Below, piece by piece: positions 7,130 to 53,243 of a stretch of 64,000 nt of DNA. The position numbers and the translations under genes are program-made. This stretch comes from an uncultured Gammaproteobacteria bacterium (GTDB lineage Bacteria > Patescibacteriota > Microgenomatia > UBA10105 > UBA927). The notes beneath the pieces are model-generated. The model was given only the letters and a program-made list of their open reading frames with translations. It was not told the DNA's origin and ran no database searches. Numbering within the stretch: position 1 is the first letter of the stretch; each line of letters starts with the position of its first letter. Location of the stretch: positions 110,484-174,483 of the forward strand of contig CAYGFH010000002.1 in NCBI GenBank assembly GCA_964349125.1, read 5' to 3'.

Positions 7130-7152
7130 CTCGTATTGTTAGGGTACCGAAA

Positions 7153-10416: not shown

Positions 10417-10422
10417 AGTCTA

Positions 10423-10941: not shown

Positions 10942-10970
10942 ACTATGTAGTTGTATCATATGTAGGACGG

Positions 10971-16684: not shown

Positions 16685-17617
16685 TTACTTCTTTGCAAAC
16701 ACAATCATATCATCCCAAGGGTTGATCGGGTTCATGATCTTAAAATGGTCAAAAAGTTTTCCAAGAGGTTTTAACATCCATGCTGCCCATGGGAAGTAAT
16801 CCCCTGCTCTTGTGAAAGCAAACGACAAAGGAAATGGTCGTGGAGTATCGGACAGAATTTCTATATGGGAAAATCCCGTTTTTTGCAGAAGTTTTCGCAT
16901 GGTATCGAAATCTAGAAGGACTACATGCTCCGGGTGTCTATACCCAAACCATCGTTTTCCCATGATTTTTTGCCATATTCCTCCCTGATTCGGAGTTGCT
17001 AAAACTAGCAAACCACCCTTTTTGAGTAATTTATATACTCTATTCATCATACGCAGAGGATCACGCTCGTGTTCAATAATCTGAAATGCACTGATCACAT
17101 CAAATGACGAATCCTTCAATTGTTTGACTGTATAGACAGTTCCCTGATATGCACGCAGGTTTTGTTTCAAGCAGTACGAGACAGCATCTCTGGAAATATC
17201 TATACCCTCTACCCTGAATCCTTCCTTTTTTGCTTCTTCCAACAAAACCCCCATAGCGCAGCCGATGTCAAGAAATCGCAATCCGCGAATCGTGAATCGC
17301 GAATCGTGAATCGCATCAATTTTTCGATGTTTTACGGTTAACGGTTTACGTTTAGCGATTAACGAAGATATTTCACCAACCTTCTTCTTAAAGTACGCGT
17401 GGTGAACAGCCAGTTGGTCCATATACGGATCAAAATGCTCAAGATCCTCATGATACAGGGATGCGATTTCCTTAGCTGTGGGCATCGGGACAACCTGCAC
17501 TAGGCCACAGTGCCTGCATTTTCCCATATTCCATCTTTTATGATGTGCAAATAGGATTGTAAACGAACCTGACCGGCACAGTACGCATTTCATAACCAGG
17601 TAATAATACCATACCAT
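16685..17617 (-). CDS. Class I SAM-dependent methyltransferase with N-terminal Cys4 zinc-ribbon
   Basis: Motif I LDIGCAMGVLLEE. N-terminal CVLC...CRHC. It contains an in-frame heptamer-repeat-encoded segment (KRKPLTVKHRKIDAIHDSRFTIRGLRF) immediately before motif I. Confidence 0.65.
   Translation of the reverse strand: MVWYYYLVMKCVLCRSGSFTILFAHHKRWNMGKCRHCGLVQVVPMPTAKEIASLYHEDLEHFDPYMDQLAVHHAYFKKKVGEISSLIAKRKPLTVKHRKIDAIHDSRFTIRGLRFLDIGCAMGVLLEEAKKEGFRVEGIDISRDAVSYCLKQNLRAYQGTVYTVKQLKDSSFDVISAFQIIEHERDPLRMMNRVYKLLKKGGLLVLATPNQGGIWQKIMGKRWFGYRHPEHVVLLDFDTMRKLLQKTGFSHIEILSDTPRPFPLSFAFTRAGDYFPWAAWMLKPLGKLFDHFKIMNPINPWDDMIVFAKK
17284..17364. repeat. Two heptamer arrays, (GCGAATC/GTGAATC)x4 and ACGGTTA-ACGGTTT-ACGTTTA-GCGATTA, inside the methyltransferase CDS
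   Basis: Read directly; in-frame coding. Confidence 0.8.
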
Positions 17618-27625: not shown

Positions 27626-28570
27626 TCAGTTGGATACATTAACCGTCTTACTCACAATGTATTTTGGTCGCCGTTTTACTTCCAAAAATATCTTCGCCAA
27701 ATATTCTGCAATAACACTTAATGATAATAATTGTACACCACCCAAAAAAAGAATCAGAACCACCACAGTCGGAATTCCTTTTGCTGCACTACCGTATGTA
27801 AGAAATGCGATAATATCGTAAATAAGAAACAAGAATGAAAAAATCGTTACACCAAACGCAATCGTAGATATCCACTCAAGCGGTTTAAAAGAGAAGTTCA
27901 CAAGTATAGTTTTTGCCCACCAGAACCCCGTCAAAATACTTTCCGATGACCTGCCATGTGCCCGTGCATCACGTACATAGTCTATACCAACCTGTTTAAA
28001 TCCGACATACGCCCGAAGACAGCGTAAATAATAATCGTATTCGTCAAGCGCCAACAACTCTCGTATGACCTTACGGTCGACAAGAGAATACTCCCCTGCA
28101 TTCATCGGAATGTGGATGTACGCCAGTTTATTGAGCACATAATAAAATCCTTTGTAGAGTGTATTCCACATCCACCCGTACCCTTTTCGCGATTTCCTCA
28201 CACCATACACGACATCAAATCCTTCTTCCCATTTTTTCACAAATGCCCCGATGAGTTCAGGCGGATCCTGGATATCTCCATGCATAAATACAGCGGCCAT
28301 CCCTTTTGCATATTCCATTCCCGCGATAAATGACGGCTGCGGGGAACCGAAATTCCGGCTCATATAGATGATTTTTACCTGTTTATCTTTTCTTGCAAGT
28401 TTGGTGTACAGCTTGTCTGAGCGATCCAGCGATGCATTATCCACATACAGAATTTCGTAGGTATATCCCGGAAGTTTTTTAAATACAGAAACGATCCGCT
28501 CGTACATTTCGAGGATATTTTCGACCTCATTATAGTTGGTAACGATGATAGAAATTATTTTTTTCTTCAT
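27626..28570 (-). CDS. GT2 polyprenol-phosphate sugar synthase-like glycosyltransferase (DPM1/GtrB/ArnC-like) with C-terminal TM helices
   Basis: IIVTNYNEVENI...YVDNASLDRSD...HGDIQDP; two C-terminal TM helices. Confidence 0.7.
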   Translation of the reverse strand: MKKKIISIIVTNYNEVENILEMYERIVSVFKKLPGYTYEILYVDNASLDRSDKLYTKLARKDKQVKIIYMSRNFGSPQPSFIAGMEYAKGMAAVFMHGDIQDPPELIGAFVKKWEEGFDVVYGVRKSRKGYGWMWNTLYKGFYYVLNKLAYIHIPMNAGEYSLVDRKVIRELLALDEYDYYLRCLRAYVGFKQVGIDYVRDARAHGRSSESILTGFWWAKTILVNFSFKPLEWISTIAFGVTIFSFLFLIYDIIAFLTYGSAAKGIPTVVVLILFLGGVQLLSLSVIAEYLAKIFLEVKRRPKYIVSKTVNVSN

Positions 28571-28576
28571 GCTATT

Positions 28577-28604
28577 CGATTCGCGGTTAACGGTTAACGG
28601 TTAA
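28577..28604. repeat. Heptamer array CGATTCG (CGGTTAA)x3 spanning the epimerase stop codon
   Basis: Read directly. Its reverse complement encodes ...ALTVNR-TAA. Confidence 0.85.
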
Positions 28605-29555
28605 CGCTTTTTTATACCATGCGTATGTTTCAAGTAATCCCATTTCCAGTGAAAATTTCGGCCTCCAGCCGAGTTTTGCTATTTTACTCCAATTGAGGTG
28701 TTGACTTGGGATTTCATTTTTCTGAGTATTTTTGATTGAGTAGGGTATCGTTGCACCCAATATCCGCTGGGCAGATTCAATTAATTTCAGTACAGAAAGA
28801 CTCGTATCAGACGCGATATTAAACGCTTCGCCGCGTGCCGCATCAAAATGCTCAAGCAAATAGAGGTATGCATCCACCACATCCCCGACATACACATAAT
28901 CCCGTACAAACGTCCCGTCGGACCGCAAAGCCAATTCTTCTCCTGTAATTGCCGAGTTCACTATGCTTGGTATGATTCTGGACATATTTAGGTCACCGGG
29001 ACCGTAAATATTACCAAATCGCACGGTTGATACAGGAGCACCATAGGTCCTCACATATGCGTTTGTTATGATATCAGCTGCTGATTTACTTGCTTCATAC
29101 GGGTGGTCACCGGCCAGAGGGTGATCCTCTGAGTAAGTTTTGTCACTTTTGCCATAGGCCTTGTCTGATGATGTCACGATGATCCGCTGCACTGTAGCAC
29201 TCTGCCAGGCGGCATCAAGTACATGTGTTGTCCCGATCACATTGGTGGTTATTGTTTCAACAGGGTTTGCATAGGCCGTATCCACAATCGGCTGCGCCGC
29301 CAGGTGGTAGATAGTTTCAATTTCGTATTTGGATACAATATCAGTAATTCTCCGTCTGTCTGTAATATCTCCCTGCGCAAGCACTGTTTTTTTATCTAAA
29401 CCGCGGGTCATAAAATATGAGGCATGATCAATGCTCCGAAATGGGATAACCACACGTGCACCTCTTTGCACCAGTGCCTCAACGAGATGACTACCGACGA
29501 ACCCGGTTCCGCCGGTAACCAATATGTGTGAATGACTGCCGATTTGATAGCTCAT
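28587..29555 (-). CDS. NAD-dependent sugar-nucleotide 4,6-dehydratase/epimerase (SDR); candidate CDP-glucose 4,6-dehydratase
   Basis: ILVTGGTGFVGSHLVEAL and YEASKSAAD (YxxxK). Its last residues ...ALTVNR* and its stop codon are encoded by the CGGTTAA heptamer array. Confidence 0.65.
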   Translation of the reverse strand: MSYQIGSHSHILVTGGTGFVGSHLVEALVQRGARVVIPFRSIDHASYFMTRGLDKKTVLAQGDITDRRRITDIVSKYEIETIYHLAAQPIVDTAYANPVETITTNVIGTTHVLDAAWQSATVQRIIVTSSDKAYGKSDKTYSEDHPLAGDHPYEASKSAADIITNAYVRTYGAPVSTVRFGNIYGPGDLNMSRIIPSIVNSAITGEELALRSDGTFVRDYVYVGDVVDAYLYLLEHFDAARGEAFNIASDTSLSVLKLIESAQRILGATIPYSIKNTQKNEIPSQHLNWSKIAKLGWRPKFSLEMGLLETYAWYKKALTVNR

Positions 29556-29674
29556 GGTGTGTGAAAACGGGGTGGGAGGATTCCCGCTATACGGTTGCTG
29601 CGGTCTGCATCAACTCAGACTGACTATAGCACAAAAACAGAGAACTACAACAGGGTTCGTGGCGCGGGCACCTG

Positions 29675-30457
29675 TTACTTCCAGACTTTCCACTGAGGAT
29701 CTGTGTTCCAATACGTGTTCAGATTCTCCACATCCGCATAGGTATCCATCGCATGCCAGAATCCTTCATGAACATGGAGAGACAGTTCTCGTTTCATGAC
29801 CAGTCTATGCAGGGCTTTATGCTCAAATTCACCCACGCGCAGGTACTCAAAAAATTTTTTGTTAAATACCATAAACCCGCCATTCACCCATTCTTTGAGT
29901 GATGGTTTCTCCACAAATTCGGTTACTGTATGTTCTCCATTTATTCTTACCTGTCCATATTTACTGCGTGGGTGTACACCCGTTATTGTTCCGATTGTGC
30001 GCTGTTTTTTATGGAAGGCGACCAGTTTTTTGATATCTATAGTGCCGACTCCATCGCCGTAGGTCACCATAAAATCTTTATCTTCTTTCGGTATGTAGTC
30101 CTTAATTCTCAAGATCCGCTCACCGGGAAGTGTTTCCGCCCCAGTGTCCACAAATGTGATGTTGAAATCATCCACAGTGTTCTCCCCTGCCGAGGCTTTA
30201 TGGATTTTTGTTTTTCCATTTTTTGTGGAGAGTGAAAAGTCGTGTGTGAAATATTGTTGATTTAAAAAATACTCTTTTATGTAGTCACCCTTATATCCGA
30301 GTGCAATGATAAAATCATTAAACCCGTAGTGGGCATAGATTTTCATGATATGCCACAATATCGGCTTATTACCGATAGTCACCATGGGTTTTGGCTTAAA
30401 TTCCGTTTCCTCTTTCAGACGATATCCTATACCACCACACAAAATCACTGTTTTCAT
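29675..30457 (-). CDS. rfbF: Glucose-1-phosphate cytidylyltransferase
   Basis: I moved the start to the internal Met: MKTVILCGGIGYRLKEETEFKPKPMVTIGNKPILWHIMKIYAHYGFNDFIIALGYKGDYIKEYF. This matches DdhA/RfbF and gives ~260 aa. Confidence 0.8.
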   Translation of the reverse strand: MKTVILCGGIGYRLKEETEFKPKPMVTIGNKPILWHIMKIYAHYGFNDFIIALGYKGDYIKEYFLNQQYFTHDFSLSTKNGKTKIHKASAGENTVDDFNITFVDTGAETLPGERILRIKDYIPKEDKDFMVTYGDGVGTIDIKKLVAFHKKQRTIGTITGVHPRSKYGQVRINGEHTVTEFVEKPSLKEWVNGGFMVFNKKFFEYLRVGEFEHKALHRLVMKRELSLHVHEGFWHAMDTYADVENLNTYWNTDPQWKVWK

Positions 30458-30524
30458 ACTTCTCGTAATTATAGTTGTACGTTCATGAATTGCAAGTGGA
30501 GTAACTCCAGCGAGTGCCGGTTCT

Positions 30525-31034
30525 TTATGGAAAAATCCGCCAGTACCATTCAAGTACCAGTTCTCTTATGCGAAAATATGACTGCGTTTTGCCGAGTCTG
30601 TACAGTGTTCCGTTGTATTGGATATCTCCTGAATCAAGCAACCGCTCAATTCGTCTTTGTACAATCTGTCGAACACCATACGTTTTTAACAGTTCATTTT
30701 TTGATACACCGTTCGTCCTTCCGCTGATTTCAGAGAGAAACCACACGGTTAGAGAGGCTTCGAACACACTAAACACAGTAAACAAAAATAACACCACACA
30801 TGCTGTATATATACCAATCACGAGTACTACCCCCGTCGTGTACTGCATGAGAGAGAGTCCAAGTATATCCGCTTTGTGAATCCATATACCGCTTGCAAGA
30901 AACAGCCCGAAGAAAAATACGATTAGCATTGCCCGTATCGCCAGTTTTTGTGAGACAATGCGAAACAATATTGGCAAACAGCATATTGCCAGAAGTACCG
31001 TTACTAGGCTTGACACTATAATCCACTCATCCAT
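30525..31034 (-). CDS. Small membrane protein (3-4 TM) with C-terminal winged-helix-like domain
   Basis: Hydrophobic N-terminal ~100 aa. C-terminus ...LLKTYGVRQIVQRRIERLLDSGDIQYNGTLYRLGKTQ. Paralogous to 31037..31522 and 40318..40839. Confidence 0.35.
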   Translation of the reverse strand: MDEWIIVSSLVTVLLAICCLPILFRIVSQKLAIRAMLIVFFFGLFLASGIWIHKADILGLSLMQYTTGVVLVIGIYTACVVLFLFTVFSVFEASLTVWFLSEISGRTNGVSKNELLKTYGVRQIVQRRIERLLDSGDIQYNGTLYRLGKTQSYFRIRELVLEWYWRIFP

Positions 31035-31036
31035 AC

Positions 31037-31522
31037 TTACCCCCGTTTTTTCCTATAAAATAGCGTTTCATAAGCTGCTATCATGCGAGCAAATTGCATG
31101 CCTTTCTTTGTACTGACAACTCCCTGTGATGTTATCGCAACCAGCCCGGACGAGCGCAAATCATCAATACGTTTCCATACGAGCTGTTTTTCACTAAACA
31201 GCGATTCTATCGCGGATTTAGTCATACCGGGACGGGATGCAAGGGCGTGAAGGATCATAGACGAGGGCGTCTCACCTCCCAAAATCACCCCGACATATAA
31301 AAACGAAAAAATAGCCGACAGCAAAAGATACAGGAGGACCGAAGAGAATATAAAGTCACTCTGTATATAGAGAAGTAGAAACACTAATGGAACTACACCC
31401 AACAGGTACACACAGACACTGCCGAGTGTGATGGCATTGTTCTTTCGACCAGACAAATGAATACCACGGTGAACCCAAATAAAAAAACCTAACACGGATA
31501 GTATACTCACCAGACTAAGCAT
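31037..31522 (-). CDS. Small membrane protein with C-terminal winged-helix-like domain (paralog)
   Basis: 4 TM helices, then ...MTKSAIESLFSEKQLVWKRIDDLRSSGLVAITSQGVVSTKKG. Confidence 0.35.
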   Translation of the reverse strand: MLSLVSILSVLGFFIWVHRGIHLSGRKNNAITLGSVCVYLLGVVPLVFLLLYIQSDFIFSSVLLYLLLSAIFSFLYVGVILGGETPSSMILHALASRPGMTKSAIESLFSEKQLVWKRIDDLRSSGLVAITSQGVVSTKKGMQFARMIAAYETLFYRKKRG

Positions 31523-31525
31523 ATG

Positions 31526-33076
31526 TTATTTTCTGCGCCAGAGAGCAGTCCCCCACCCCTCCACTTTTTCATAGTGCTCATTGATATACGGAAGATCATC
31601 AGTGAGTTCCCAAAACCTGCCGCTGTCGCCCTGATAGATATATGCCACCTTCTTTTCCTCCAGTACTTCACGAAGCGGTCTAGGAGGTCTGGAAAGAAAC
31701 CGTACGAAGGTACCAAACGGCAGACAGCAAATATCGTACGGGTCCGTCCTGTATATAAACCTGCCGTCGAGATCCAACACCTGCTCATTCTCACCAACGA
31801 GCGACCGCAGTTGTTCCGTTTGGACAAGCTGTACTTTGTTTGATATCTGCATTTTTGGGGCATTCACTACTGCTGTCTGCCTCGCAAATAGAAGCGCCAA
31901 CGCGATAAGCAGTACGGGAGACAAAACAGAAGTACGACGAAAAACTAACGAAACGAAATCTGCACAGTACATCGCGATAAAGACCGCAATGGGAATCAGA
32001 TACTGACTGTGCTTCATGGGAAAAAACATCACATACAATACCACTGAGACAATAAATACTCCTGCGATCAGGAGCTCTGATAACACCCGCTTCCCTTTCC
32101 CGTCAGCTCTAATATAGGGGGTGAGCAGACTCATCACACCCACGCAAATGCCGATCGCCCAAATCGTATGGTTCAAGAGAAGCGCATTGGTAACCCCCCA
32201 TCCACCATAAAACGATGCGTTAGGGAAAAAGAACAGGTGTGGCTCCATTATATATATGCGCCCGATGGTATTTGCCTCAAACGGCATGCTCGTCAGTGAA
32301 TAGAGCACTTTAGATATATCCCCCAGTGACAGCAGCCAGAATGCGAACAACAGTCCCGTCATACCAAATCCGTAGAGAAAATATGCATGGGCTCCTGTGC
32401 CCGGCAGGCGCTGAATCCTGCGTGTAGAAAGTGTGCGGAGTATCCACTGATACATCCCCACATCCAACAGGTATATGGCAAAACCTACCACGACAAACGG
32501 GAGTGATTTTACAAGAATTATCATAGATGCAGCGTAGCTAATCGCCGAGAAAAACCAATAGTACCTGCTGCGCCCATGGAGCGGATTCTCCATAGCTATG
32601 ATCTGTAGATACATTCCCAAAAGCCCGAACACTGTGGAGACATTATCGGGACGCACTTCCATAAATTTGTCAAATGGCATCGGTAAAAACGCGAGGATAC
32701 ACATCGGAATCACAAAAAACCGCTTTGACCTCACGGTTCTATACAGAAGTCCCGTCAAGGCAACCATGACAGCAAAAACAACAAATGCAGCAACTCGTGT
32801 GGCGATAAATAAGGATGTGCTCTTGCCGAAGAGCCAAAACAACGGAGTTAAAAGCCAATAAAAACCGGGGGTAAAAAAGGTGAAAAAATCTATATATGGC
32901 GTCTGACCCCGGGCAAAATTTGCGGCCCAGTGCAGATGGGTGAATTCGTCCACATCAAAAAAGCGAGTAATTCCGACTGTGTAATGCCAGTACAGCAGAT
33001 ATCCCAAAAGAACACTCGCTATTACATACTCGACGAGAATAATCAGTTTGGGGATGGTGAAATATGATGATTTCAT
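31526..33076 (-). CDS. Polytopic membrane protein, putative GT-C-fold glycosyltransferase (paralog)
   Basis: About 12 TM helices. C-terminal domain ...KKVAYIYQGDSGRFW... It overlaps the upstream SDR gene by 4 bp. Confidence 0.35.
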   Translation of the reverse strand: MKSSYFTIPKLIILVEYVIASVLLGYLLYWHYTVGITRFFDVDEFTHLHWAANFARGQTPYIDFFTFFTPGFYWLLTPLFWLFGKSTSLFIATRVAAFVVFAVMVALTGLLYRTVRSKRFFVIPMCILAFLPMPFDKFMEVRPDNVSTVFGLLGMYLQIIAMENPLHGRSRYYWFFSAISYAASMIILVKSLPFVVVGFAIYLLDVGMYQWILRTLSTRRIQRLPGTGAHAYFLYGFGMTGLLFAFWLLSLGDISKVLYSLTSMPFEANTIGRIYIMEPHLFFFPNASFYGGWGVTNALLLNHTIWAIGICVGVMSLLTPYIRADGKGKRVLSELLIAGVFIVSVVLYVMFFPMKHSQYLIPIAVFIAMYCADFVSLVFRRTSVLSPVLLIALALLFARQTAVVNAPKMQISNKVQLVQTEQLRSLVGENEQVLDLDGRFIYRTDPYDICCLPFGTFVRFLSRPPRPLREVLEEKKVAYIYQGDSGRFWELTDDLPYINEHYEKVEGWGTALWRRK

Positions 33077-33981
33077 TTCTCGTAGTATGACATATTTTTA
33101 TTTACCACATCCTGCCAGCTATATGCCGGTATACCAAGTTTTTTGCCGGTATCAACTCCTGTAATTGCGCTGTACTTGGTAAACCGGGCAGGAAGGGTTT
33201 CTCTTTTGACATAGTCATCAAATGAGATTGTCTGCAACTCATGCGTATCCAAGCCCAGACCCTTGAGTGCGTACAGACAAAGCTCGTACGGACTCACCTC
33301 ATCATCACTCACCATATGGAATATGCCGCAACTGCGATTGGCCACTAACGTCCGGACACCCTGTGCTGCGATTGCCAGATCAGTTACGGGGAAGTACTGG
33401 TCAATAAAAAGCGGGTAGAGCTGTTTTTTCCTATAGAGCATGAGTAGCGACCGAAGATACTCCCCCATTGCACTGATCCGCCTGTGGGGCGTGACCGGTC
33501 CGTACAGTGGGTGCGATAGCCGAATGATCGCGCCATGTGGCTGGAAAAATTGTTCCCCCAATTTTTTGGTTACCCCATACCAGGACAGCAGTTCGTCGGA
33601 AGCGACTGGATCTTCTTCAGAAAACGGACCAGGGTTGACTGGTGTTCCTGAAAATACGGATCCTGTGGAGATGTATATACCATATGCGCCGGATTGTTCC
33701 ATCGCGACTGCGATAGCATCAGAACCAGTCACATTAACCCTATAACACTCCCCTGACGTGTCTCCCCGCTCATTTTCTGCGCGAGTGTTATCTGTAAATG
33801 CAGCCGCATGGATAATTGCGGTAGGTTTTACACGTGATACGTAGGACAAAACTGATTCTTTTTCGGTGATATCCATTTCATCCCTGCTCGGTGTGAAAAT
33901 AGTACACCAGTCAGAAAGCAGTGAGGCAAACACCGACCCCACAAACCCTCTTGCACCTGTTATGAGTATTTTTTGTTTCAT
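33073..33981 (-). CDS. NAD(P)-dependent sugar-nucleotide reductase/epimerase (RmlD-like)
   Basis: I moved the start to MKQKILITGARGFVGSVFASLL; short-chain SDR lacking an extended substrate domain. Confidence 0.5.
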   Translation of the reverse strand: MKQKILITGARGFVGSVFASLLSDWCTIFTPSRDEMDITEKESVLSYVSRVKPTAIIHAAAFTDNTRAENERGDTSGECYRVNVTGSDAIAVAMEQSGAYGIYISTGSVFSGTPVNPGPFSEEDPVASDELLSWYGVTKKLGEQFFQPHGAIIRLSHPLYGPVTPHRRISAMGEYLRSLLMLYRKKQLYPLFIDQYFPVTDLAIAAQGVRTLVANRSCGIFHMVSDDEVSPYELCLYALKGLGLDTHELQTISFDDYVKRETLPARFTKYSAITGVDTGKKLGIPAYSWQDVVNKNMSYYEK

Positions 33982-34030
33982 ATGCATCGATACTATTTCA
34001 TGATTCAACAATACCCTTTACGCGTTACGA

Positions 34031-35701
34031 CTATAATTTCACTCTGTAAATAATCACGTCTCCCTCGTTGTACACCTCGCTCAAAAACGGGTATTTCAAT
34101 CCCCATCTGGAGGGATTAAGCGCATGTTCCTCTGGAGAATAGTACACGTACGAAATATCATAGGTCTGCAAAAATGTATATGCCGCGGCATCATCCACTG
34201 TTTGCCGATAAAACCCGGATAGAGCGCCTAATACGGCTGGGAATGATGGCGGCTCAATCAGTTTATACCACCAGCTCGTGTACACTCTGTTTCCCGCAAA
34301 TGCTGGAATGAGCATTCCTGCGTGATACCCAGACAACACAATATCACCCGTCTTTGTGTTCTGTCGTAACCAGTCAATGGATCTCATGACAGTCTTAGCA
34401 GGATACCCGAAATCTAGCACGGGAGGCTGACAGAAACATAGTTCGGACCGCCGTACGGTCCGCTGATATGAAAAAATACTGGTGCCAAGGATCAGGATCA
34501 ACAGTGCTCCGTAGATTCTATTTGGCCTCAACAGAGAGAATCTCGCTTTTGCCCACGCAACAATATGGGCCAACAGCACTCCCGACAACACGCCAAACGC
34601 GACATAGTACGGGGTGATCATATACCGGATCGGATTGATATGCATGAATTTGGAAAGTACGAATTCCCCCACCGGATGCATGATTGTCCATGTCCATAAA
34701 AGCAGAAGAAGCGGCGAGCCTTTTTTCAGAACAATGGGTAACGATACTATTGAGAGGATATACGGAACTCCCATTACAAATAGATACTCGGAAAATGTCA
34801 GAACAAACGGATTGAGAAATTCCATTTTTCCGGTATTCAAATCTTGCCAGTAGTATCCGACAATATAGCGCACGTATAGAACCGGAATAAGCACAACTGC
34901 CGCATAGGTACATATCACTCCCAGCTGTACCACAGAAACAGTCAGTTTTTTGCGGCGGATCCATCCTGATAGGATACTGAGGAGCACAAACAGCGGAAAA
35001 CTGGAGACAATAAGTATGATATCGGGTGCATAGAAAAACGCCACGAGGATTCCTGATATTAAGGCCAGAACGAATAGCGTGAACGCGCGGGAGATGACAA
35101 ATACCCGCGCTAGTAGGTACATGGTTACGAAAGAAAACAGACCTCCCAACAGATAGTGCGGCATGGCGATAGTCATGCGTTGAAACACCAGGACATCGTA
35201 AATTGCTCCGTCCGGAAAACTAAATTGCCAGGAGGGCAACACGATGCCCGATCCAAACAGAACAAGTATATATGCAGCAACGCGTCCGGCGAGAGGCGGG
35301 ATGACACTCCGTATCAGTATGTACACCATCGCCATATAGCCAAGTGACAGGACAAATTGGGATATCCGAAACATATGTATGGGATCAGTCCGAAGCAGCC
35401 GTGCGAGATGTCCTATGACTATGTATTCGAATTTTACAATCGACGGATGATCACCCAAAAAAATGGAATAGTTAAACCGTGCAAACACCTCTCCCAGATA
35501 CCCTTGCCTGACATACGCCAGATTTCCCAGCTGATCTATCGGAAATTCTTCCGCACCAAAATAGTATCTGTCAGTGGGTGCGCGCTGATAATTTCTATAT
35601 ATGGGAAAGTATGCACAGCATAGGAGCACAATGCTGATACTTACTATATAGATATACTCACGGTAGCGTCCAATAAATCCGGCCATACGGTATACATCCA
35701 T
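34031..35701 (-). CDS. Polytopic membrane protein, putative GT-C-fold glycosyltransferase (paralog)
   Basis: N-terminal loop 'DRYYFGAEEFPIDQLGNLAYVRQGYLGEVF'. More than 10 TM helices. C-terminal domain ...YDISYVYYSPEE...DVIIYRVKL. Confidence 0.35.
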   Translation of the reverse strand: MDVYRMAGFIGRYREYIYIVSISIVLLCCAYFPIYRNYQRAPTDRYYFGAEEFPIDQLGNLAYVRQGYLGEVFARFNYSIFLGDHPSIVKFEYIVIGHLARLLRTDPIHMFRISQFVLSLGYMAMVYILIRSVIPPLAGRVAAYILVLFGSGIVLPSWQFSFPDGAIYDVLVFQRMTIAMPHYLLGGLFSFVTMYLLARVFVISRAFTLFVLALISGILVAFFYAPDIILIVSSFPLFVLLSILSGWIRRKKLTVSVVQLGVICTYAAVVLIPVLYVRYIVGYYWQDLNTGKMEFLNPFVLTFSEYLFVMGVPYILSIVSLPIVLKKGSPLLLLLWTWTIMHPVGEFVLSKFMHINPIRYMITPYYVAFGVLSGVLLAHIVAWAKARFSLLRPNRIYGALLILILGTSIFSYQRTVRRSELCFCQPPVLDFGYPAKTVMRSIDWLRQNTKTGDIVLSGYHAGMLIPAFAGNRVYTSWWYKLIEPPSFPAVLGALSGFYRQTVDDAAAYTFLQTYDISYVYYSPEEHALNPSRWGLKYPFLSEVYNEGDVIIYRVKL

Positions 35702-35920
35702 CTTACTCAGATTTGCAGCTCTTCTCAGTGAAAAATCTGACTCGCCTCGCTGTTATGTAGCGAAGCGGGTTAGATGGGTCTATACCCAAAAACTAATGTT
35801 GCAAATCTGCGTTTTTGCGGTATACACATACTATCAAAGCACCTTACACAGTCAACACCAAAATACTTTTTTTGAGACTCTCCAAGTAGGCGCGCTTGGA
35901 GGTATAATGAGCTACCAGGT

Positions 35921-36622
35921 ATGAAACTTCGATCGCTTACAATCGTTATCCCCTGCTACAACACAGCCTCTACCGTACAGGATGTGGTTCTAAACGCCCA
36001 CTCAGTAGCAAAACGGGTAAGCAGTTCTGTGGAAATAATTACACTTGACGATGCCAGTACTGACAGCACACCGGCGATACTTGTTAGTCTCAAGTCAAAG
36101 ATCCCCGGGATGAGAGTACTTTCTCACTCGGTAAACAAAGGATACGGAGAAACGATAAAAACCCTGTACCAAAAGGCAACGGGAGACTGGATATTTTCGC
36201 TGCCTTCAGATGATCAGTTTGATGCCGCTGAACTTATGAAATTACTCCCCTACACCACGTCTGCAGATATGATACTGGGCAGGAGGGTAAAACGCAGCGA
36301 TATAGCCAAGCGCAGGCTTCAGTCACAGATATATAACTGGTTGCTTCGATTCCTTTTTGGGATGAATCTTCATGATGCCAATACAATACGGCTTATGAAA
36401 AAAAGCGTGATCACTGCACTGCCACTTGTATCACGGAGTGCGTTTGTTGATGCGGAACTCGCCATTAGAATGCAGCAACATGGGTATACAATGCGGGAAG
36501 TCCCGGTTACCCATAAAGTCCGCATAGATAAAGGCGGATCTGGTGGAAAATTTTTCAAAACAATCCTTCCTACAATTATAGATATGGTGAGGATGAAAAT
36601 ATCGTTAACCGCGAAACGCTAA
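35921..36622 (+). CDS. GT2 DPM1-like glycosyltransferase (soluble, 233 aa)
   Basis: TIVIPCYNTASTV...ITLDDASTDST...SVNKGYGE. The C-terminus ...SLTAKR* is encoded by heptamer-repeat-like sequence. Confidence 0.7.
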   Translation: MKLRSLTIVIPCYNTASTVQDVVLNAHSVAKRVSSSVEIITLDDASTDSTPAILVSLKSKIPGMRVLSHSVNKGYGETIKTLYQKATGDWIFSLPSDDQFDAAELMKLLPYTTSADMILGRRVKRSDIAKRRLQSQIYNWLLRFLFGMNLHDANTIRLMKKSVITALPLVSRSAFVDAELAIRMQQHGYTMREVPVTHKVRIDKGGSGGKFFKTILPTIIDMVRMKISLTAKR

Positions 36623-36636
36623 TCGCGAACGCAAAA

Positions 36637-36692
36637 CGATTAACGATTAACGATTAACGATTAACGATTAACGATTAACGATTAACGATTAA
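36637..36692. repeat. Perfect tandem heptanucleotide array (CGATTAA)x8, flanked upstream by degenerate CGNNNAN heptamers from 36603
   Basis: Direct count: 56 nt = 8 x 7. It lies 25 bp upstream of the ATG at 36718. Confidence 0.9.
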
Positions 36693-36717
36693 CGTATGGT
36701 ATCATACCCTCACAATT

Positions 36718-37725
36718 ATGATTCAGATAGGCATTATCGGATTCGGATACTGGGGTCCAAATATTTTGAGAAACTTCGCCTCCCATAATGACGCTAGTGT
36801 TATATGGGTATGCGATATAAACCCAAAGACCACCACTCTGGTGGAAAAACAGTACCCGGGTGTCAAAGTCACCGCAAACGCGAGGGATGTATTTGATGAC
36901 CCCACCTGTGATGCTGTGGTTATTGTCACACCCATATCCACACACTTCTCCCTGGCAAAAAAAGCGCTCGAAGCCAAAAAGCATGTGCTGATAGAGAAAC
37001 CCATGACCCAGAAAAAAACAGAGTCAGACACGCTGATATCACTGGCAAAAAAACATAAAAAAACCCTTATGGTTGATCATACGTTTATCTATACTCCGGC
37101 CGTATCTGAAATTAAAAAAATAATAGACTCAGAAAAACTTGGGAGTATACTCCATGTAGACTGTGTCCGAACCAATCTCGGTCTTCTTCAGCGTGATAGT
37201 AATGTGCTCTACGACTTGGCTACACATGATCTTTCTATCATTGATTATATTTTCGGCGCATCCCCCACTGCGGTGTCTACACAGGGAGTGACCCTCGATG
37301 GTACAAATCAGGAAGCGGTTGCCTATATGAACGCGACTTATCCCGGCAATCTGCATGTGCATATTCATGTGAGCTGGATATCGCCGGTCAAGGTCAGAAA
37401 GATTACCATAGTCGGTACGAAAAAAATGCTCGTATATGATGATATGGAACCGACAGAGAAAATAAAGATTTATGATAAATCAATTTCCCTCACCGCGGAT
37501 GCACATGCGGCACAGCAGCTCAGGATCGGGTACCGCATCGGTTCGACGATTGCCCCGCACATCGACGTTGCCGAAGGACTTTCGAAAATGGCATCTGTAT
37601 TTATACACGCCATCACGACGCACACTCCTCCTCCGACAGACGGCGATCAGGGAAAGCGTATAGTGCACATTCTTGAGTCTGCTACAAAATCGATCAGGAA
37701 TAATGGTAAAATGATTCGACTCTAG
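36718..37725 (+). CDS. Gfo/Idh/MocA-family NAD-dependent sugar oxidoreductase (WbpB/WlbA-like)
   Basis: IGIIGFGYWGPNILRNF Rossmann motif. EKP motif (LIEKPMTQ). Adjacent to a hexapeptide acetyltransferase and a DegT aminotransferase. Confidence 0.7.
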   Translation: MIQIGIIGFGYWGPNILRNFASHNDASVIWVCDINPKTTTLVEKQYPGVKVTANARDVFDDPTCDAVVIVTPISTHFSLAKKALEAKKHVLIEKPMTQKKTESDTLISLAKKHKKTLMVDHTFIYTPAVSEIKKIIDSEKLGSILHVDCVRTNLGLLQRDSNVLYDLATHDLSIIDYIFGASPTAVSTQGVTLDGTNQEAVAYMNATYPGNLHVHIHVSWISPVKVRKITIVGTKKMLVYDDMEPTEKIKIYDKSISLTADAHAAQQLRIGYRIGSTIAPHIDVAEGLSKMASVFIHAITTHTPPPTDGDQGKRIVHILESATKSIRNNGKMIRL

Positions 37726-37735
37726 TAGTACCGCT

Positions 37736-38197
37736 ATGATCACAGACGATGTTATCCTCGGGAAAAACGTGCAAATATTCCATCCGGAACAGGTAAATAT
37801 ATACGGATGCTCCATTGGTGACAATACAAAAATCGGCTCGTTTGTCGAGATAAAAGAAACGGCAATAATCGGAAAAAACTGTAAAATCCAGGCTTTTGCG
37901 TTTATCCCTGAGGGGGTTGTGATAGAAGACGGTGTATTTATCGGTCCACACGTTGTGTTTACAAACGATACGTATCCTAAAGCTATAAACGAAGACGGGA
38001 CGATGAAAAAAGCCGGCGACTGGACACCGAAAAAAACCCATGTTCGGGCTGCAGCCGCCATCGGCGCAGGGGCAGTGATTTTGCCTGGAGTGACGATCGG
38101 TCGAAATGCTACGGTAGGTGCAGGATCTGTCGTGACAAAGGATGTCCCTGCACACAGTACCGTAATCGGAAACCCTGCCCGCATTCAAAAAAAATAA
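37736..38197 (+). CDS. Left-handed beta-helix (hexapeptide-repeat) sugar N-acetyltransferase (WbpD/WlbB-like)
   Basis: Repeated [LIV]G-x4 hexapeptides (IGDNTKIGSFVEI..., IGAGAVILPGVTIGRNATVGAGSVV). Confidence 0.7.
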   Translation: MITDDVILGKNVQIFHPEQVNIYGCSIGDNTKIGSFVEIKETAIIGKNCKIQAFAFIPEGVVIEDGVFIGPHVVFTNDTYPKAINEDGTMKKAGDWTPKKTHVRAAAAIGAGAVILPGVTIGRNATVGAGSVVTKDVPAHSTVIGNPARIQKK

Positions 38198-38201
38198 TCG
38201 C

Positions 38202-39320
38202 ATGAAGCATATACCTCTCGTGAACCTGGAGCGTCAATTTACGTCAATTAAGCGTGACGTAACACGCGCGCTACTTGCCGTCTGTAAAAAGACCGATTTT
38301 ATTCTCGGTGATGAGGTTCTGGAATTTGAAGAAGCGTTTGCCACGTATATAGGAGTTTCGTACTGTGTCGGTGTTGCAAACGGTACAGACGCCTTAAAAC
38401 TTATGGGAATGGCCTCTGGCATCACAAAGGGTGACGAGATTATCATGCAGGCCAATACGTTTATCGCGACAGCCCTCCCGTTTATTGAACTTGGTGCGAC
38501 ACCGGTCTTCGTTGACTGCGATCCAAAAACCGGACAGATAGATGTAGCAGCTGTAGAAAAAGCGATGACGAAAAAGACCCGTGCCATTATCCCAGTCCAC
38601 CTGTACGGGTATCCGGCACCCATCAATGAATTATCACGGTTAACGGTTAACAGTTCGCGATTAACGATACTTGAGGACGCCTGTCAGGCACACGGCTCCA
38701 TGGTGAACGGCAAAAAATGCGGATCGTTTGGCGATATGGCTGCTTTTTCTTTCTATCCGGGCAAAAACCTTGGCGCGTACGGCGACGGCGGCGCAGTGGT
38801 GACAAACAGTAAGAAACTGTACGAAAAGCTGAAGATTATTAGAAACATCGGACAGAAGAAAAAATATGAGCATACGGTGCTTGGCACCAACAGCAGGCTT
38901 GATACCATACAGGCGGCTGTATTATCCGTCAAACTCCCCCACCTTGATTCGTGGAACAGGAAAAGAAATACTATCGCGCTTCGATATCTGCGGGAGCTAT
39001 CCGATGTACAGGGATTGGCATTGCCACCACTTCCGTCGAGAGAATCAGCTACAAACTGGCATTTATTTGTCGTTCAAACCTCAAGGAGAACTGCACTCAT
39101 GAAATTTTTACACGCAAACGGTATTCATACAGGCATCCATTACCCGACACCGCTACATACTACACCTGCATTGAAGTTTCTGGGATATACACAGGGAGAC
39201 TTCCCCAGGAGCGAGGCACGCGCCAAGCAACTGCTCACACTTCCTCTGTATGCTGAACTTACAGAATCTGAAATTTCCTATATAATCCGAACAATCAAAA
39301 CTTTCTGTATAAAAAAGTAA
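38202..39320 (+). CDS. DegT/DnrJ/EryC1/StrS-family aminotransferase (WbpE/WlbC-like)
   Basis: Lys motif FSFYPGKNLGAYGDGG. It has an unusual in-frame heptamer-repeat-encoded segment INELSRLTVNSSRLTIL where paralogs have MDAIMKLARKYKLKVI. Confidence 0.75.
   Translation: MKHIPLVNLERQFTSIKRDVTRALLAVCKKTDFILGDEVLEFEEAFATYIGVSYCVGVANGTDALKLMGMASGITKGDEIIMQANTFIATALPFIELGATPVFVDCDPKTGQIDVAAVEKAMTKKTRAIIPVHLYGYPAPINELSRLTVNSSRLTILEDACQAHGSMVNGKKCGSFGDMAAFSFYPGKNLGAYGDGGAVVTNSKKLYEKLKIIRNIGQKKKYEHTVLGTNSRLDTIQAAVLSVKLPHLDSWNRKRNTIALRYLRELSDVQGLALPPLPSRESATNWHLFVVQTSRRTALMKFLHANGIHTGIHYPTPLHTTPALKFLGYTQGDFPRSEARAKQLLTLPLYAELTESEISYIIRTIKTFCIKK
38637..38664. repeat. CGGTTAA CGGTTAA CAGTTCG CGATTAA heptamers inside the aminotransferase CDS
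   Basis: Read directly; encodes SRLTVNSSRLTI. Confidence 0.8.
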
Positions 39321-39327
39321 CGACACT

Positions 39328-40317
39328 ATGAAACTTCGCGGTAAAACACTGTTGGTCACAGGCGGTGCCGGATTTATCGGCTCCCATTTTGTGGAAGAGT
39401 ACGCAAAAACGCATACGATCATCGTATATGACAACTTCGCATCGAATGTAGTCACTCCATCACAATTGAAAACATTCGGTGTGTCCCGTGTGGTCAAAGG
39501 GGATATTCTAGACCGGGAAAAACTGACGAAGGCCATGAAGGGTGTGGATGTCGTGTTTCATTTTGCCGTTGCCTGCGTACGGCTATCACTGTCCGATGAA
39601 GCGCATGTGCACGAAGTAAATGCCACAGGGACACTCTTCGCACTCCTGGCAGCGAAAAAGGCGGGGGTGAAACAATTTGTCTATATTTCCTCCTCGGAAG
39701 TGTATGGCACAACCCATGGAGAATCCATTGATGAATCACACGGTATTACACCGCAGACGGTATATGGCATGAGCAAGTACGTGGGAGAATTGTATGCCAA
39801 ACACTTCAACGATATAGAAGGCCTCCCAAGTTGCATCATACGGCCATTTAATGCGTATGGACCCAGAGCACATTTTGACGGTGTATACGGAGAAGTCATT
39901 CCCCGGTTCACCATACAGGCACTAAGCGGCACTCAGCTGACGGTATTCGGAGACGGATCACAAACACGTGATTTTACCTATGTGAAAGATACGGTAACAG
40001 GCATATACGCTGCGGCAGAAGAGGAAAAATTGCGGGGAGATGTCATAAACATTGCCTTCGGCAAGGAGGTGTCAGTGAGAACGATTGCACAGACCATTTG
40101 CCGCCACACCAATCTTCCATATCAGCCCGATCAACTCCCTCCCCGTCCAAATGACGTGGATAGGCTTGCTGCAAATACAAAAAAAGCCGGGAAGCTACTC
40201 GGGTTTTCTCCGAAAACGGCAATTGAAACAGGGCTAGAACTGTATGTGGATTGGGTGAAGCAATCGTATCGCGACACCAAGAAGCTGCTAAGACAAATAC
40301 CCTCCCGTAACTGGTAA
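39328..40317 (+). CDS. NAD-dependent sugar-nucleotide epimerase/dehydratase (SDR)
   Basis: LLVTGGAGFIGSHFVEE and YGMSKYVGE (YxxxK). Confidence 0.7.
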   Translation: MKLRGKTLLVTGGAGFIGSHFVEEYAKTHTIIVYDNFASNVVTPSQLKTFGVSRVVKGDILDREKLTKAMKGVDVVFHFAVACVRLSLSDEAHVHEVNATGTLFALLAAKKAGVKQFVYISSSEVYGTTHGESIDESHGITPQTVYGMSKYVGELYAKHFNDIEGLPSCIIRPFNAYGPRAHFDGVYGEVIPRFTIQALSGTQLTVFGDGSQTRDFTYVKDTVTGIYAAAEEEKLRGDVINIAFGKEVSVRTIAQTICRHTNLPYQPDQLPPRPNDVDRLAANTKKAGKLLGFSPKTAIETGLELYVDWVKQSYRDTKKLLRQIPSRNW

Positions 40318-46694: not shown

Positions 46695-48488
46695 TCATCC
46701 ACACTCTATGGGAGGGACATCCACCACAGTATAGACGGTTGTCATCCCAAAGGTATTCCATGGCTGCAGAAATAAGTATCTAGAAACCGCATTCCCGGCT
46801 TGTCTTTCATCAGCGCTAAAAAATACCGCTTTTATGTTGTTGGTCTTCACGAGCATATAGGCCTCACACGGAGACATGGTTCCGGCAAAAAATGACCAGG
46901 AAACTGCCAGTTTCTTATCCAACTCAGGTGTGTAGACAACCTGCCCTACATAGACTGACCTATTCACATATGTCGGTATTGTCATACCGGCAAGAGACAG
47001 TGACATGATCGCTTCGCCCGGTTTTGTTATAGCCCCAAGTTCACGAATTGCACTCACATATTGGATGTCTGGATATTGGTAGTCACGGCCAAAATAGACA
47101 TGTGCTATCTGTTCACTCACTGTGGAAGGGTACCCGACAAATGTCAGCACAACCATAGCGGCAATCACAAGGATACGAAGCACCGAGGGAAGAATCTGAA
47201 GCGCGGTGGAAAACCCGACTGCCCCCAAAATTGACAAGGGAACCCAGACAGCTACCTGTAAAAAACGGATATTGGATATCGGGTGAGTTCTGATAACCTC
47301 AAATGGGCTAAACGGCATGAGCTTTGACAGTGGGATCATCACAATTGAGGTGACAATCCAAAGCAATAATATAAGAAAATTCGAAATCCTAAACTCGAAA
47401 TTCGAAATATGTTTGATACCGTTATATGTTGTACCTTTTGTTTGTTTTGAATTTGTTTCGAGTTTCACGCTTCGTGCTTCGAATTTAAGTGATACGAATA
47501 TGGCAATCATGCCAATGATTGCAAAAAATACCACTGGCCCCAATGCCAACAGATATTCAGGTACGGATAATGCAAATGACCACCCTTCAAATGCACGTGC
47601 CAGATTCCAAGGAAAAATCGCGGATACACTGTTTATAATACCGAGTCCGCTTCCGGCTCCCACGAGTGAAGCAAAACCAATTTGGATCATCCTCTGTGAC
47701 CGGATGATCACCATAATGAGTGGGATGATAAGCAGTATCTGTATTGCGCTGGGAGGGTGGACAAATGCAGCAATCCACGCGGCGACTGCCACCCTCACGA
47801 GCCACCGTTTTCCCGTCCTTGATTCCCTATGCCACCAGGTGGAGAACGCCCATTTCGTCCGCTCGGGAACTATTTTTTTAGGAGCCTGGAAACGGACGTA
47901 TTCCAAAACCGATATAAACACAGAGACCATCATGATATGCCCCATTGTGAAGTGCGGGATAAAAGCCGCTCGAACTACGGGATCAAGCTCACTCCACCAG
48001 GTCATGTAGCCTGTGACAACCGGGGCTCCCAATACCTCGACCACACGGGGAAAACTGGCGCTAAACAAGGAAAATGCGAGAGCCAGTATCCTCTGCCATT
48101 TTTCCCGGATGGAGAGTGTTATGAGTCTGTATATCGCGATACACCAGATAATTCCGAGCACATAGCGCGAAGCGTGGTATGCAATATGCGCATCTGATAC
48201 CCCGATACTTCGTGCCACCATGCCTATAGCCAGATAGAAAAAATGGATCACACTCCCTTCGTGGGTCTCCGTGGCAAACGGATTGAATACTGTTATACTC
48301 CCGTCGACTCCCTGCCGCACCACAGACACGTAAAATGAATAATCACTCAGTGAATTGTGTATAGGGATGTACGTGTGGCCGGGATCAATCTGCGCGAGCT
48401 TCCCTACCCATACGGCGATATTAAGACACAGTGCTATGGCGCAAAGAAGGATAACGATGCCGTATTCACTCTTAGTAGCGTCCTTCAT
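46695..48488 (-). CDS. Polytopic membrane protein, putative GT-C-fold glycosyltransferase (paralog)
   Basis: 'LSDYSFYVSVVRQGVDGS' loop motif. It contains heptamer-repeat-encoded ISNFEFRISNF. C-terminus ...IKAVFFSADE...TTVYTVVD. Confidence 0.35.
   Translation of the reverse strand: MKDATKSEYGIVILLCAIALCLNIAVWVGKLAQIDPGHTYIPIHNSLSDYSFYVSVVRQGVDGSITVFNPFATETHEGSVIHFFYLAIGMVARSIGVSDAHIAYHASRYVLGIIWCIAIYRLITLSIREKWQRILALAFSLFSASFPRVVEVLGAPVVTGYMTWWSELDPVVRAAFIPHFTMGHIMMVSVFISVLEYVRFQAPKKIVPERTKWAFSTWWHRESRTGKRWLVRVAVAAWIAAFVHPPSAIQILLIIPLIMVIIRSQRMIQIGFASLVGAGSGLGIINSVSAIFPWNLARAFEGWSFALSVPEYLLALGPVVFFAIIGMIAIFVSLKFEARSVKLETNSKQTKGTTYNGIKHISNFEFRISNFLILLLWIVTSIVMIPLSKLMPFSPFEVIRTHPISNIRFLQVAVWVPLSILGAVGFSTALQILPSVLRILVIAAMVVLTFVGYPSTVSEQIAHVYFGRDYQYPDIQYVSAIRELGAITKPGEAIMSLSLAGMTIPTYVNRSVYVGQVVYTPELDKKLAVSWSFFAGTMSPCEAYMLVKTNNIKAVFFSADERQAGNAVSRYLFLQPWNTFGMTTVYTVVDVPPIECG
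47370..47480. repeat. TTCGAAA-type heptamer repeats inside CDS 46695..48488
   Basis: ttcgaaatcctaaactcgaaattcgaaat ... ttcgagtttcacgcttcgtgcttcgaattt. Confidence 0.6.
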
Positions 48489-48503: not shown

Positions 48504-48546
48504 CGGTAAAATCGCTAATCGCTAATGGTTATTCGTTATTCGTATA
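48504..48546. repeat. Heptamer array (ATCGCTA x2, TGGTTAT, TCGTTAT x2-like) in the promoter region of the minus gene starting at 48488
   Basis: Read directly. Confidence 0.75.
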
Positions 48547-53139: not shown

Positions 53140-53231
53140 GTCATTGCGAGGAGTCCACGACAGTTCGTCGTGACGACGCGGCAATCTCTTTCGTATAGAT
53201 TGCTTCGCCGTTGGAACGGACTCGCAATGAC
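53140..53231. mobile_element. MITE-like palindromic element copy B (92 bp), intergenic
   Basis: TIRs GTCATTGCGAGGAGTCC / GGACTCGCAATGAC. It shares the core GCGGCAATCTC..AGATTGCTTCG with copy A. Confidence 0.6.
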
Positions 53232-53243
53232 AAAGAAGAATAT

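Follow-up and report, generated by a model that had tools for sequence, protein, structure and literature searches.

What generates tandem arrays of 7-nt units across a cluster of glycan-biosynthesis genes, and do such arrays switch the genes that they touch? This question is raised by a stretch of 64,000 nucleotides (here called the window; contig CAYGFH010000002.1), in which an earlier note had described dispersed heptamer arrays between and within genes and had interpreted them as devices for slipped-strand phase variation. The most conspicuous array is a perfect (CGATTAA)8 tract, which ends, as that note had reported, 25 nt before the ATG at 36718 of a GFO/IDH/MocA sugar oxidoreductase gene. 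We favor a different account and consider it probable: the arrays would be heptanucleotide long simple-sequence repeats (LSSRs) arising from a mutational process that is particular to certain lineages, has a step of 7 nt, and is filtered by selection, and the long tract would not be an on/off switch.

Arrays were called as regions with at least 17 of 21 matches at a lag of 7, using 20 shuffles as a control and scanning periods from 4 to 15 over the whole window. This yielded eight period-7 regions, compared with 0.0 in the shuffles, while the other periods stayed at background; perfect period-7 runs numbered five versus a mean of 0.07 in 30 dinucleotide shuffles. Tandem Repeats Finder (TRF) returned 17 rows with a period of 7, 14, or 21, consistent with head-to-tail 7-nt units. 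TRF and the sequences themselves bore out the six sites listed by the earlier note and its view of a real, nonrandom dispersed feature, but its list had missed further arrays at 47377-47408 (with a partner at 47456-47486), 53585-53622, and 54612-54651. The notion of one heptamer family proved too narrow, with the mutually unrelated units CGRTTAA, GAATCGY, TTCAATK, AAATTCG, and AATCGCT all taking part; the TAACTGA unit of the Beggiatoaceae family was not among the array units found by TRF in the window. Counting heptamers against expectation, as the note had proposed, revealed an excess of tandem period-7 sequence but none of isolated words. CGRTTAA occurs 21 times in the window and only 4 times outside arrays (expected, 8.9 ± 2.9), and its complement TTAAYCG occurs 3 times outside arrays (expected, 9.2). 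Since the words are not enriched once arrays are masked, the feature is a tandem 7-nt periodicity with several units rather than a dispersed motif.

These counts bear directly on the idea that biased transformation has spread a word for DNA uptake or recognition. Candidate Phyla Radiation (CPR) bacteria are thought to import DNA, pilin-like genes lie at 9910-10989, and the distribution of the repeat patches is discordant with that of their flanks; on the other hand, many unrelated units coexist, and an uptake-sequence-like word was rejected because singletons are not in excess in either orientation. An assembly artifact, which the earlier note had named as a possible refutation, was ruled out in turn, as the same arrays are present in at least four independent assemblies (one from ENA and three from Logan), with reading frames kept through the coding arrays. 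We give practically no credence to either explanation.

Copy number set the long tract apart from the other arrays. Over 15,935 nt aligned in three pieces, ENA assembly ERZ27247817 (k141) differed from the window by no substitution and by one indel, a ninth CGATTAA unit. All shorter arrays were 100% identical to the window in four other contigs (ENA and three Logan runs); at the long tract, Logan contigs end after 30 nt, which is what k=31 predicts. Of all sites seen, the long perfect tract is the most mutable, and its hypermutability is supported, whereas the short or degenerate arrays were stable at the resolution of the assemblies compared.

The location of the tract in a promoter region, likewise claimed by the earlier note, is corroborated by relatives in which the array is absent. 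In L124, L126, and L209, TTGCAW-17 nt-TATCGT is found just upstream of the GFO/IDH/MocA ATG, a predicted canonical sigma-70-type promoter (L124:8470-8516; L126:4290-4328; L209:4395-4440; corresponding to window 36697-36720). In L126 this promoter and the end of the GT2 glycosyltransferase gene overlap, and the spacer there is 18 nt. In the window and in L125, a heptamer array takes the place of the -35 element, and the -10 element reads TGGTATCAT or TGGTATTAT (TGGTATYAT), i.e., an extended -10, which plausibly compensates for the lost -35. The (CGATTAA)8 tract of the window and the (GCTTTAC)n array of L125 (n of at least 4) both end in ...CG TATGGTAT. The long tract (56 to 63 nt) lies wholly upstream of the -10 (roughly -17 to -76), has a periodic sequence, and is fixed at a distance of 2 nt from the TG. 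Owing to its periodicity and to this anchoring beside the -10, one unit more or less alters no -35/-10 spacing, and such a change probably alters nothing within ∼60 nt, or the polymerase footprint, of the predicted promoter. An unchanged predicted core promoter argues against a classical on/off promoter switch. The tract might thus exert a graded modulation of expression at most, or have no effect; an RNA-level effect in read-through transcripts may also occur.

It is against this geometry that a contingency locus has to be judged, in which slipped-strand changes of (CGATTAA)n would switch or tune the sugar operon and thereby cause surface-glycan phase variation, with the coding arrays acting as frameshift switches. 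Its appeal lies in a perfect tract of 8 to 9 units whose copy number is the sole variant between assemblies, in the promoter region of a glycan-biosynthesis operon, a classic phase-variation target (PMC8437040). There is also a precedent in the (ATCTTTC)n tract of hmw1A, whose length tunes expression via a hairpin in the 5' untranslated region (5' UTR) and RNase III (PMC12721329), and the arm at 36601-36625, with 80% complementarity to the perfect tract in whichever register, could pair with it. However, the predicted hairpin of 36601 with 36637 is weak (z = -1.7), the core spacing is unaltered, relatives manage without any array at these sites, and the coding arrays are degenerate and do not vary between assemblies; in the DegT aminotransferase gene, the segment keeps a constant length and an intact frame in six lineages. 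We therefore regard a contingency locus as possible but unlikely. What stands of the proposed slipped-strand variation is that the tract is mutable in length (8 versus 9 units); the switch geometry is not supported. In Haemophilus influenzae hmw1A/hmw2A (PMC8262952, PMC12721329), a perfect 7-nt tract with copy-number polymorphism and a complementary hairpin arm is likewise set upstream of a surface-related gene, but that tract lies in a transcribed 5' UTR, has at least 11 units, and has a demonstrated effect on expression, whereas the window tract, with 8 to 9 units, lies upstream of a predicted -10.

The second array for which textbook switch geometry had been asserted, upstream of the ATG at 48488, is a poor candidate, with ∼2.4 plus 2.3 copies that are invariant across assemblies. 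It is located 6 nt upstream of an extended -10 box, TGCTATGAT (48503-48495, minus strand), which itself precedes the ATG of the open reading frame (ORF) at 46695-48488 by 6 nt. Boxes resembling a -10 element occur 5 to 15 nt before many ATGs of the window (1666, 2760, 35921, 42853, 48488 on the minus strand, and 48601), and no Shine-Dalgarno sequence was found in the window before the GFO/IDH/MocA ATG or at these starts. This suggests that near-leaderless or very short-leader transcripts may be widespread in this genome. At the position of the long tract, L124 has an unrelated 74-nt spacer (L124:8439-8514) containing a stem-loop, CCACCTCACA...TGTGAGGGTGG (-21 kcal/mol for the 95-nt stretch folded), and L126 has a spacer of only 18 nt; judged from these alignments, the junction of the GT2 and oxidoreductase genes is a hotspot for sequence turnover. 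No intrinsic terminator was predicted after the GT2 gene.

Within and at the ends of genes, the composition of the units matters. Perfect CGATTAA or CGGTTAA arrays of at least three units contain TAA in all three frames of both strands, and it is because of these stops in all six frames that an epimerase gene and a GT2 gene end inside arrays, as had been noticed before. The epimerase ends in ...KKALTVNR* inside a (CGGTTAA)3 array, which also occupies all 16 nt between this gene and the GT2 start at 28570, and the other GT2 protein ends in ...KISLTAKR* inside the degenerate left arm at 36601-36634. In the array-free L124, whose epimerase-end segment is nonrepeat, the same two genes end in KKYTVVEK* and MVKMRLRR*. 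The recurring in-frame peptides of the earlier note were found as well, namely, SRLTVNSSRLTI in the DegT aminotransferase, PLTVK in a methyltransferase, and EPLTANR in a YfhO-like protein. In two of the coding units, TTCAATK (giving FNVQFSIF) and GAATCGY (giving DSRF/TIR from the minus strand), the translated strand is open, and the other coding arrays are degenerate, with the stop mutated, e.g., CGG TTA ACG GTT AAC AGT TCG in DegT.

The coding arrays fall in stretches that differ among homologues in sequence and mostly also in length. In the YfhO-like protein they occupy three loops that are hypervariable among homologues; in the methyltransferase they lie in the linker between a zinc-ribbon-like N terminus and the S-adenosylmethionine (SAM) domain, which measures ∼5 to 45 residues in homologues; and in DegT the array encodes a poorly conserved stretch (helix) just before the conserved LEDAxQAHG motif. 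The proposal that in-frame arrays act as on/off switches found no support: they hold at most three perfect copies, are identical in every assembly, and no frameshifted allele was seen in any assembly compared. In the methyltransferase linker (alignment A6, columns 95-140) and the YfhO-like loops (53211-55751, alignment A5), some homologues carry VIPG..TRNP or ..AGIQ.. peptides, which resemble other repetitive palindromic elements translated in frame.

Comparison of orthologous loci, also suggested by the earlier note, gave a divided picture, with arrays recurring at the same sites in some relatives and absent from those sites in others. Array density was 12.5 per 100 kb in the window, 12 arrays in the 15.3 kb of L210, and 0 to 1 in 12 to 22 kb of L124, L126, and L211, so that close relatives differ more than 10-fold. 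L124, which is 91% identical at the nucleotide level and syntenic with 28132-40103, has no period-7 array, and of the six hyperdivergent patches that set it apart from the window, three coincide exactly with window arrays. L126 and L211, which come from one sample and are 78 to 87% identical, have none and one array, respectively. L125 (81% identical) does have arrays; its contig starts in (GCTTTAC)n upstream of the oxidoreductase gene, with the same end register as in the window. The 12 arrays of L210 reach up to 141 nt, and some are compound, with a stepwise drift of the unit.

Several side observations concern these relatives. The drift in L210, a Gottesmanbacteria-like contig, runs from GTTACGG to GTTTCCT, GTCTCCT, and GTCTCTT, and its intergenic regions L210:1-460 and L210:6860-7483 consist nearly entirely of heptamer arrays; the compound array at 40-160 recurs in inverted form ∼7 kb away at 7090-7200, the two bracketing a block of genes, and the contig begins with a period-8 array, (CTTAGGAG)7. 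In the window, a hyperdivergent intergenic patch relative to L124 (33985-34030) contains a weak two-unit heptamer, CTTTACG CGTTACG, which resembles the GCTTTAC unit of L125 and may be a nascent or decayed array.

The DegT gene was the most informative site. Its array is 35 nt long with the same CG phase in the window, L125, L208, and L209, but the units are of CGRTTAA type in the first three and of CGAATCT type in L209; L124 and L126 share a common nonperiodic segment of the same length, and the frame is intact in all six lineages. Read from these alignments, orthologous arrays exchange their unit but not their position, length, or register, which is concerted evolution. A model of recent insertion of the DegT array, drawn from the comparison with L124, had to be revised, as L208 and L209 have arrays in the same place and register with other units.

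This site also speaks to mobile elements, either of the miniature inverted-repeat transposable element (MITE) type or like Rickettsia palindromic elements (RPEs), in which case each inverted pair of ∼80 to 90 nt would be an inserting palindromic element. The pairs at 17283-17364, 36601-36694, and 53866-53948 resemble one another in size, the sites in the methyltransferase and the YfhO-like protein are variable and prone to insertion, and in Acidobacteria inverted (CCGTTAA)n/(CGGTTAA)n arrays flank a palindromic element of ∼100 nt. Yet no conserved core, terminal repeats, or target-site duplications came to light, the last in three comparisons of filled and empty sites; several arrays are single, and the spacers between arms are unrelated. 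Moreover, the DegT and epimerase arrays replace sequence and leave the length of the encoded protein unchanged, the DNA at the epimerase end being 6 nt longer in the window (spacer). We hold an origin from mobile elements to be very doubtful. RPEs are reported to be inserted in frame in protein genes (Ogata et al., 2000), and short repetitive, palindrome-forming DNA tolerated in frame in surface loops or linkers of otherwise conserved proteins is a shared trait; RPEs are defined elements of ∼100 to 150 bp with a conserved sequence, whereas the window has tandem heptamers without a shared core, two of which replace rather than insert.

The Acidobacteria loci deserve separate mention. At L016:4070-4405, L037:1299-1512, L038:1308-1521, and L116:3253-3494, three of which derive from the metagenome-assembled genome SRR6670122_bin.76, the inverted (CCGTTAA)n/(CGGTTAA)n arrays flank a conserved palindrome (CACGTCATCCTGAG...CTCAGGATGACGTG) of ∼100 to 200 nt, and the whole looks like a composite repeat or MITE-like unit.

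Inverted array pairs are present at 4 of the ∼9 array loci of the window (17283/17334, 36601/36637, 47377/47456, and 53866/53916). Folding z-scores ranged from +0.9 to -3.0 and were mostly no better than -1.7, the exception being the pair at 53860-53955 (z = -3.0); strong conserved RNA or DNA hairpins were rejected on these scores. Hairpin-capable pairs would be expected if the arrays were cis-regulatory sites kept by selection, bound by protein or acting at the RNA level (S1, CsrA-type, or Csp-type proteins, as proposed for TAACTGA repeats, or an RNase III hairpin as in hmw). The placement of window arrays next to start codons and over upstream stops does resemble that of TAACTGA repeats, which are found before start codons and over upstream stops because the forward repeats stop all frames (MacGregor 2015, PMC4679880). 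The units, however, differ between arrays and even between orthologous arrays, roughly half of them sit within coding loops, the corresponding genes of close relatives are free of arrays, and a scan of the window gave no Rfam match, so that with mostly unremarkable z-scores we consider cis-regulatory sites improbable. The TAACTGA repeats of marine Beggiatoaceae, cyanobacteria, and Bacteroidetes (PMC4679880) share with the window a TAA-containing 7-nt unit, occurring mostly as 2 to 6 dispersed copies with few, peripheral copies in frame. The two families differ in the unit itself and in that CGRTTAA carries stops on both strands and TAACTGA only on the forward strand; about half of the window arrays are coding, and several unrelated units coexist.

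The preferred reading, heptanucleotide LSSRs, also accounts for arrays as a class found elsewhere. A scan of genome collections for (CGRTTAA)3 returned at least 120 loci from Bacteroidota, Acidobacteriota, Cyanobacteria, Proteobacteria, Patescibacteria, and others; the source genome was not among the matches listed. The 120 loci used for period counts held 266 period-7 arrays with many units, compared with 0 to 20 arrays for periods 5, 6, and 8 to 11, and inverted pairs were frequent. As a background control, 80 unrelated metagenome loci, from a scan for orthologues that yielded distant relatives only (at most 55% identity), contained eight period-7 arrays (2.2 per 100 kb) versus 0 to 1 for other periods. 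In the part of PMC4679880 that summarizes Mrazek, Guo & Shah (2007), heptamers are the commonest class of long simple-sequence repeats, have a sporadic phylogeny, and are linked tentatively to polymerase slippage; the part of PMC4692102 citing Mrazek (2007) states that LSSRs with units of 5 to 11 nt come mainly from large genomes of bacteria that are not host adapted. As far as these accounts go, the window shares with LSSRs the dominant 7-nt class, a scattered lineage-specific distribution, many units per genome, and a proposed origin by slippage, and differs in that its host is a small-genome CPR lineage and that in-register concerted evolution inside conserved enzymes is documented.

Similar traits are known from the short tandemly repeated repetitive (STRR) sequences of the cyanobacteria Calothrix, Anabaena, and Nostoc and from the G-rich GGGNATC heptamers of Xanthomonas and Nostoc (Rehm 2015, PMC4692102), i.e., dispersed tandem heptamers of variable copy number and unexplained function, those being mostly intergenic. 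Their units are G-rich and capable of forming G-quadruplexes, with four units preferred, whereas the window units are AT-rich, form no G-quadruplex, and are often arranged in inverted pairs. The class is thus the known heptanucleotide LSSR/STRR class, for which Patescibacteria are a new phylum; the literature searched contained no report of heptamer repeats or phase variation in Patescibacteria.

Under the LSSR reading, the arrays would be made and homogenized by replication misalignment with a 7-nt step, that is, by slippage and by transient misalignment and realignment, and strand switching would yield the inverted partner arrays. Some lineages would show much of this activity and their close relatives almost none. 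Selection then decides which arrays remain. Perfect CGRTTAA arrays are found between genes or serve as a gene's last codons plus stop; inside coding sequence, arrays are kept only as stop-free units or degenerate copies, and only where the protein has hypervariable loops, linkers, or a poorly conserved helix. The long tract would have overwritten the -35 of a conserved internal promoter of the sugar-modification operon, which would now rely on the extended -10.

Several points weigh against this account. Slippage or misalignment was inferred, not observed, and copy-number variation was seen in two assemblies with two alleles (8 versus 9 units). The DegT array alleles contradict the phylogeny of the flanks, since the window and L125 have the array and L124 and L126 do not, while the window is closest to L124. 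These discordant alleles require short-patch recombination or recurrent conversion, and simple slippage hardly explains a change of unit at fixed length. Two arrays adjoin extended -10 boxes in the same geometry, and the upstream arrays could have been selected for promoter function rather than merely tolerated. Finally, the oxidoreductase promoter and its near-leaderless start are predictions from sequence conservation only. A bolder variant would be an active process, in some CPR lineages and scattered lineages of other phyla, linked to replication or repair and with a fixed 7-nt step, that besides expanding and contracting arrays overwrites adjacent or preexisting sequence in place (by templated misalignment and realignment plus strand switching), homogenizes arrays in register at constant length, and is toggled between close relatives by a putative trans-acting factor. 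If true, arrays would be homogenized even inside conserved enzymes and promoters. We rate this variant as unlikely.

Judged from its proteins, the host belongs to the Patescibacteria (CPR) and is a relative of Gottesmanbacteria: named homologues of three window proteins belong to Candidatus Gottesmanbacteria, Woesebacteria, Microgenomates, and Patescibacteria. Proteins identical to those of the window recur on a 250-kb NCBI contig and in assemblies from ENA and Logan. The window itself constitutes a cluster for glycan biosynthesis, with GT2 glycosyltransferases, epimerases/dehydratases, three DegT aminotransferases, the GFO/IDH/MocA oxidoreductase, acetyltransferases, the methyltransferase, the YfhO-like membrane protein, the pilin-like genes, and a 2643-aa ORF; a tRNA scan gave no match. 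The operon downstream of the perfect tract comprises oxidoreductase, acetyltransferase, DegT aminotransferase, and epimerase genes for sugar modification. Coordinates are collected in Table 1.

Table 1. Heptamer arrays of the window and the genes and promoter element next to the long tract
Feature	Coordinates	Strand	Remarks
Perfect (CGATTAA)8 tract	36637-36692		TRF 36635-36694 as (AACGATT)8.6, 100% match; independent assembly L001 has 9 units
Degenerate units in opposite orientation (CGTTAAC CGCGAAA CGCTAAT CGCGAA CGCAAAA)	36601-36634		Supply last codons and TAA stop of GT2 gene
Predicted extended -10 box TGGTATCAT	36697-36705	+	2 nt after array, 12 nt before ATG; inferred from conservation
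GT2 glycosyltransferase, 233 aa (relatives, 229 aa)	35921-36622	+	C terminus ...SLTAKR* array encoded
GFO/IDH/MocA sugar oxidoreductase	36718-37725	+	Downstream of perfect tract
(CGGTTAA)3.3 array	28576-28612		Last six residues (ALTVNR) and TAA stop of epimerase (28587-29555, minus)
Five degenerate units in frame in DegT aminotransferase (SRLTVNSSRLTIL)	38637-38671	+	
(GAATCGY)4.5 array, hypervariable linker of methyltransferase (16685-17617, minus)	17283-17315		Inverted partner of 17334-17364
Degenerate (ACGGTTA)4.4 array, methyltransferase linker	17334-17364		
(AAATTCG)4.6 array inside 597-aa ORF (46695-48488, minus)	47377-47408		Degenerate inverted partner at 47456-47486
(AATCGCT)2.4 and (GTTATTC)2.3, divergent intergenic region	48510-48543		
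(TTCAATK)5 array in frame (FNVQFSIF), hypervariable loop of YfhO-like protein	53585-53622	+	
(CGTTAAC)4.3 array, hypervariable loop of YfhO-like protein	53866-53900		Inverted partner of 53916-53948
Degenerate (CGATTAA)-type array, YfhO-like loop of 53866-53900	53916-53948		
Second (TTCAATT) array in frame (NVQFSIFNY), another variable loop of YfhO-like protein	54612-54651	+	

Further observations concern the gene content around the YfhO-like gene and in the glycan cluster. The giant 2643-aa ORF (56007-63938, minus strand) adjoins the YfhO-like gene, and at its position relatives have genes of 11849 and 8242 residues (L210:8058-15278; L211:13038-22376). Small toxin-antitoxin-like genes (YafQ-like, PIN) are inserted at differing points of the otherwise syntenic glycan operon of relatives (L126:5796-6328; L208:4136-4757; L210:7483-7996), scattered insertions that show rapid flux of gene content in the glycan cluster. 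Just upstream of the YfhO-like gene, at 53170-53210, lies a palindromic sequence, GCGGCAATCTCTTTCGTATAGATTGCTTCGCCG, whose word AGATTGCTTCGCCG recurs in L209 in the 5' leader of the GFO/IDH/MocA gene. The excess of AGATTGCTTCGCCG in the window is weak (5 matches versus 1.3 expected, with at most 2 mismatches), and these palindromic sequences perhaps form a further family of small repeats.

Among the long tandem repeats of bacteria, heptamer arrays are the most common, and their origin, the reason for the number 7, and their function have stayed unexplained for more than 30 years. The present locus extends them to Patescibacteria and comes with unusually clean comparative material, comprising near-identical assemblies that differ by one unit only, close relatives of which some have arrays at given sites and others have none there, and orthologous arrays with swapped units but the same length and register. 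With this material, the question of whether such arrays are a mutational by-product or a regulatory device becomes testable with existing metagenomic reads. If it is true that the long tract tunes the sugar operon, it would be a candidate contingency locus in the CPR, for which we found no earlier example in the literature searched. For annotation, the lesson is that in such genomes repeat arrays can write the ends of genes, promoters, and protein loops.

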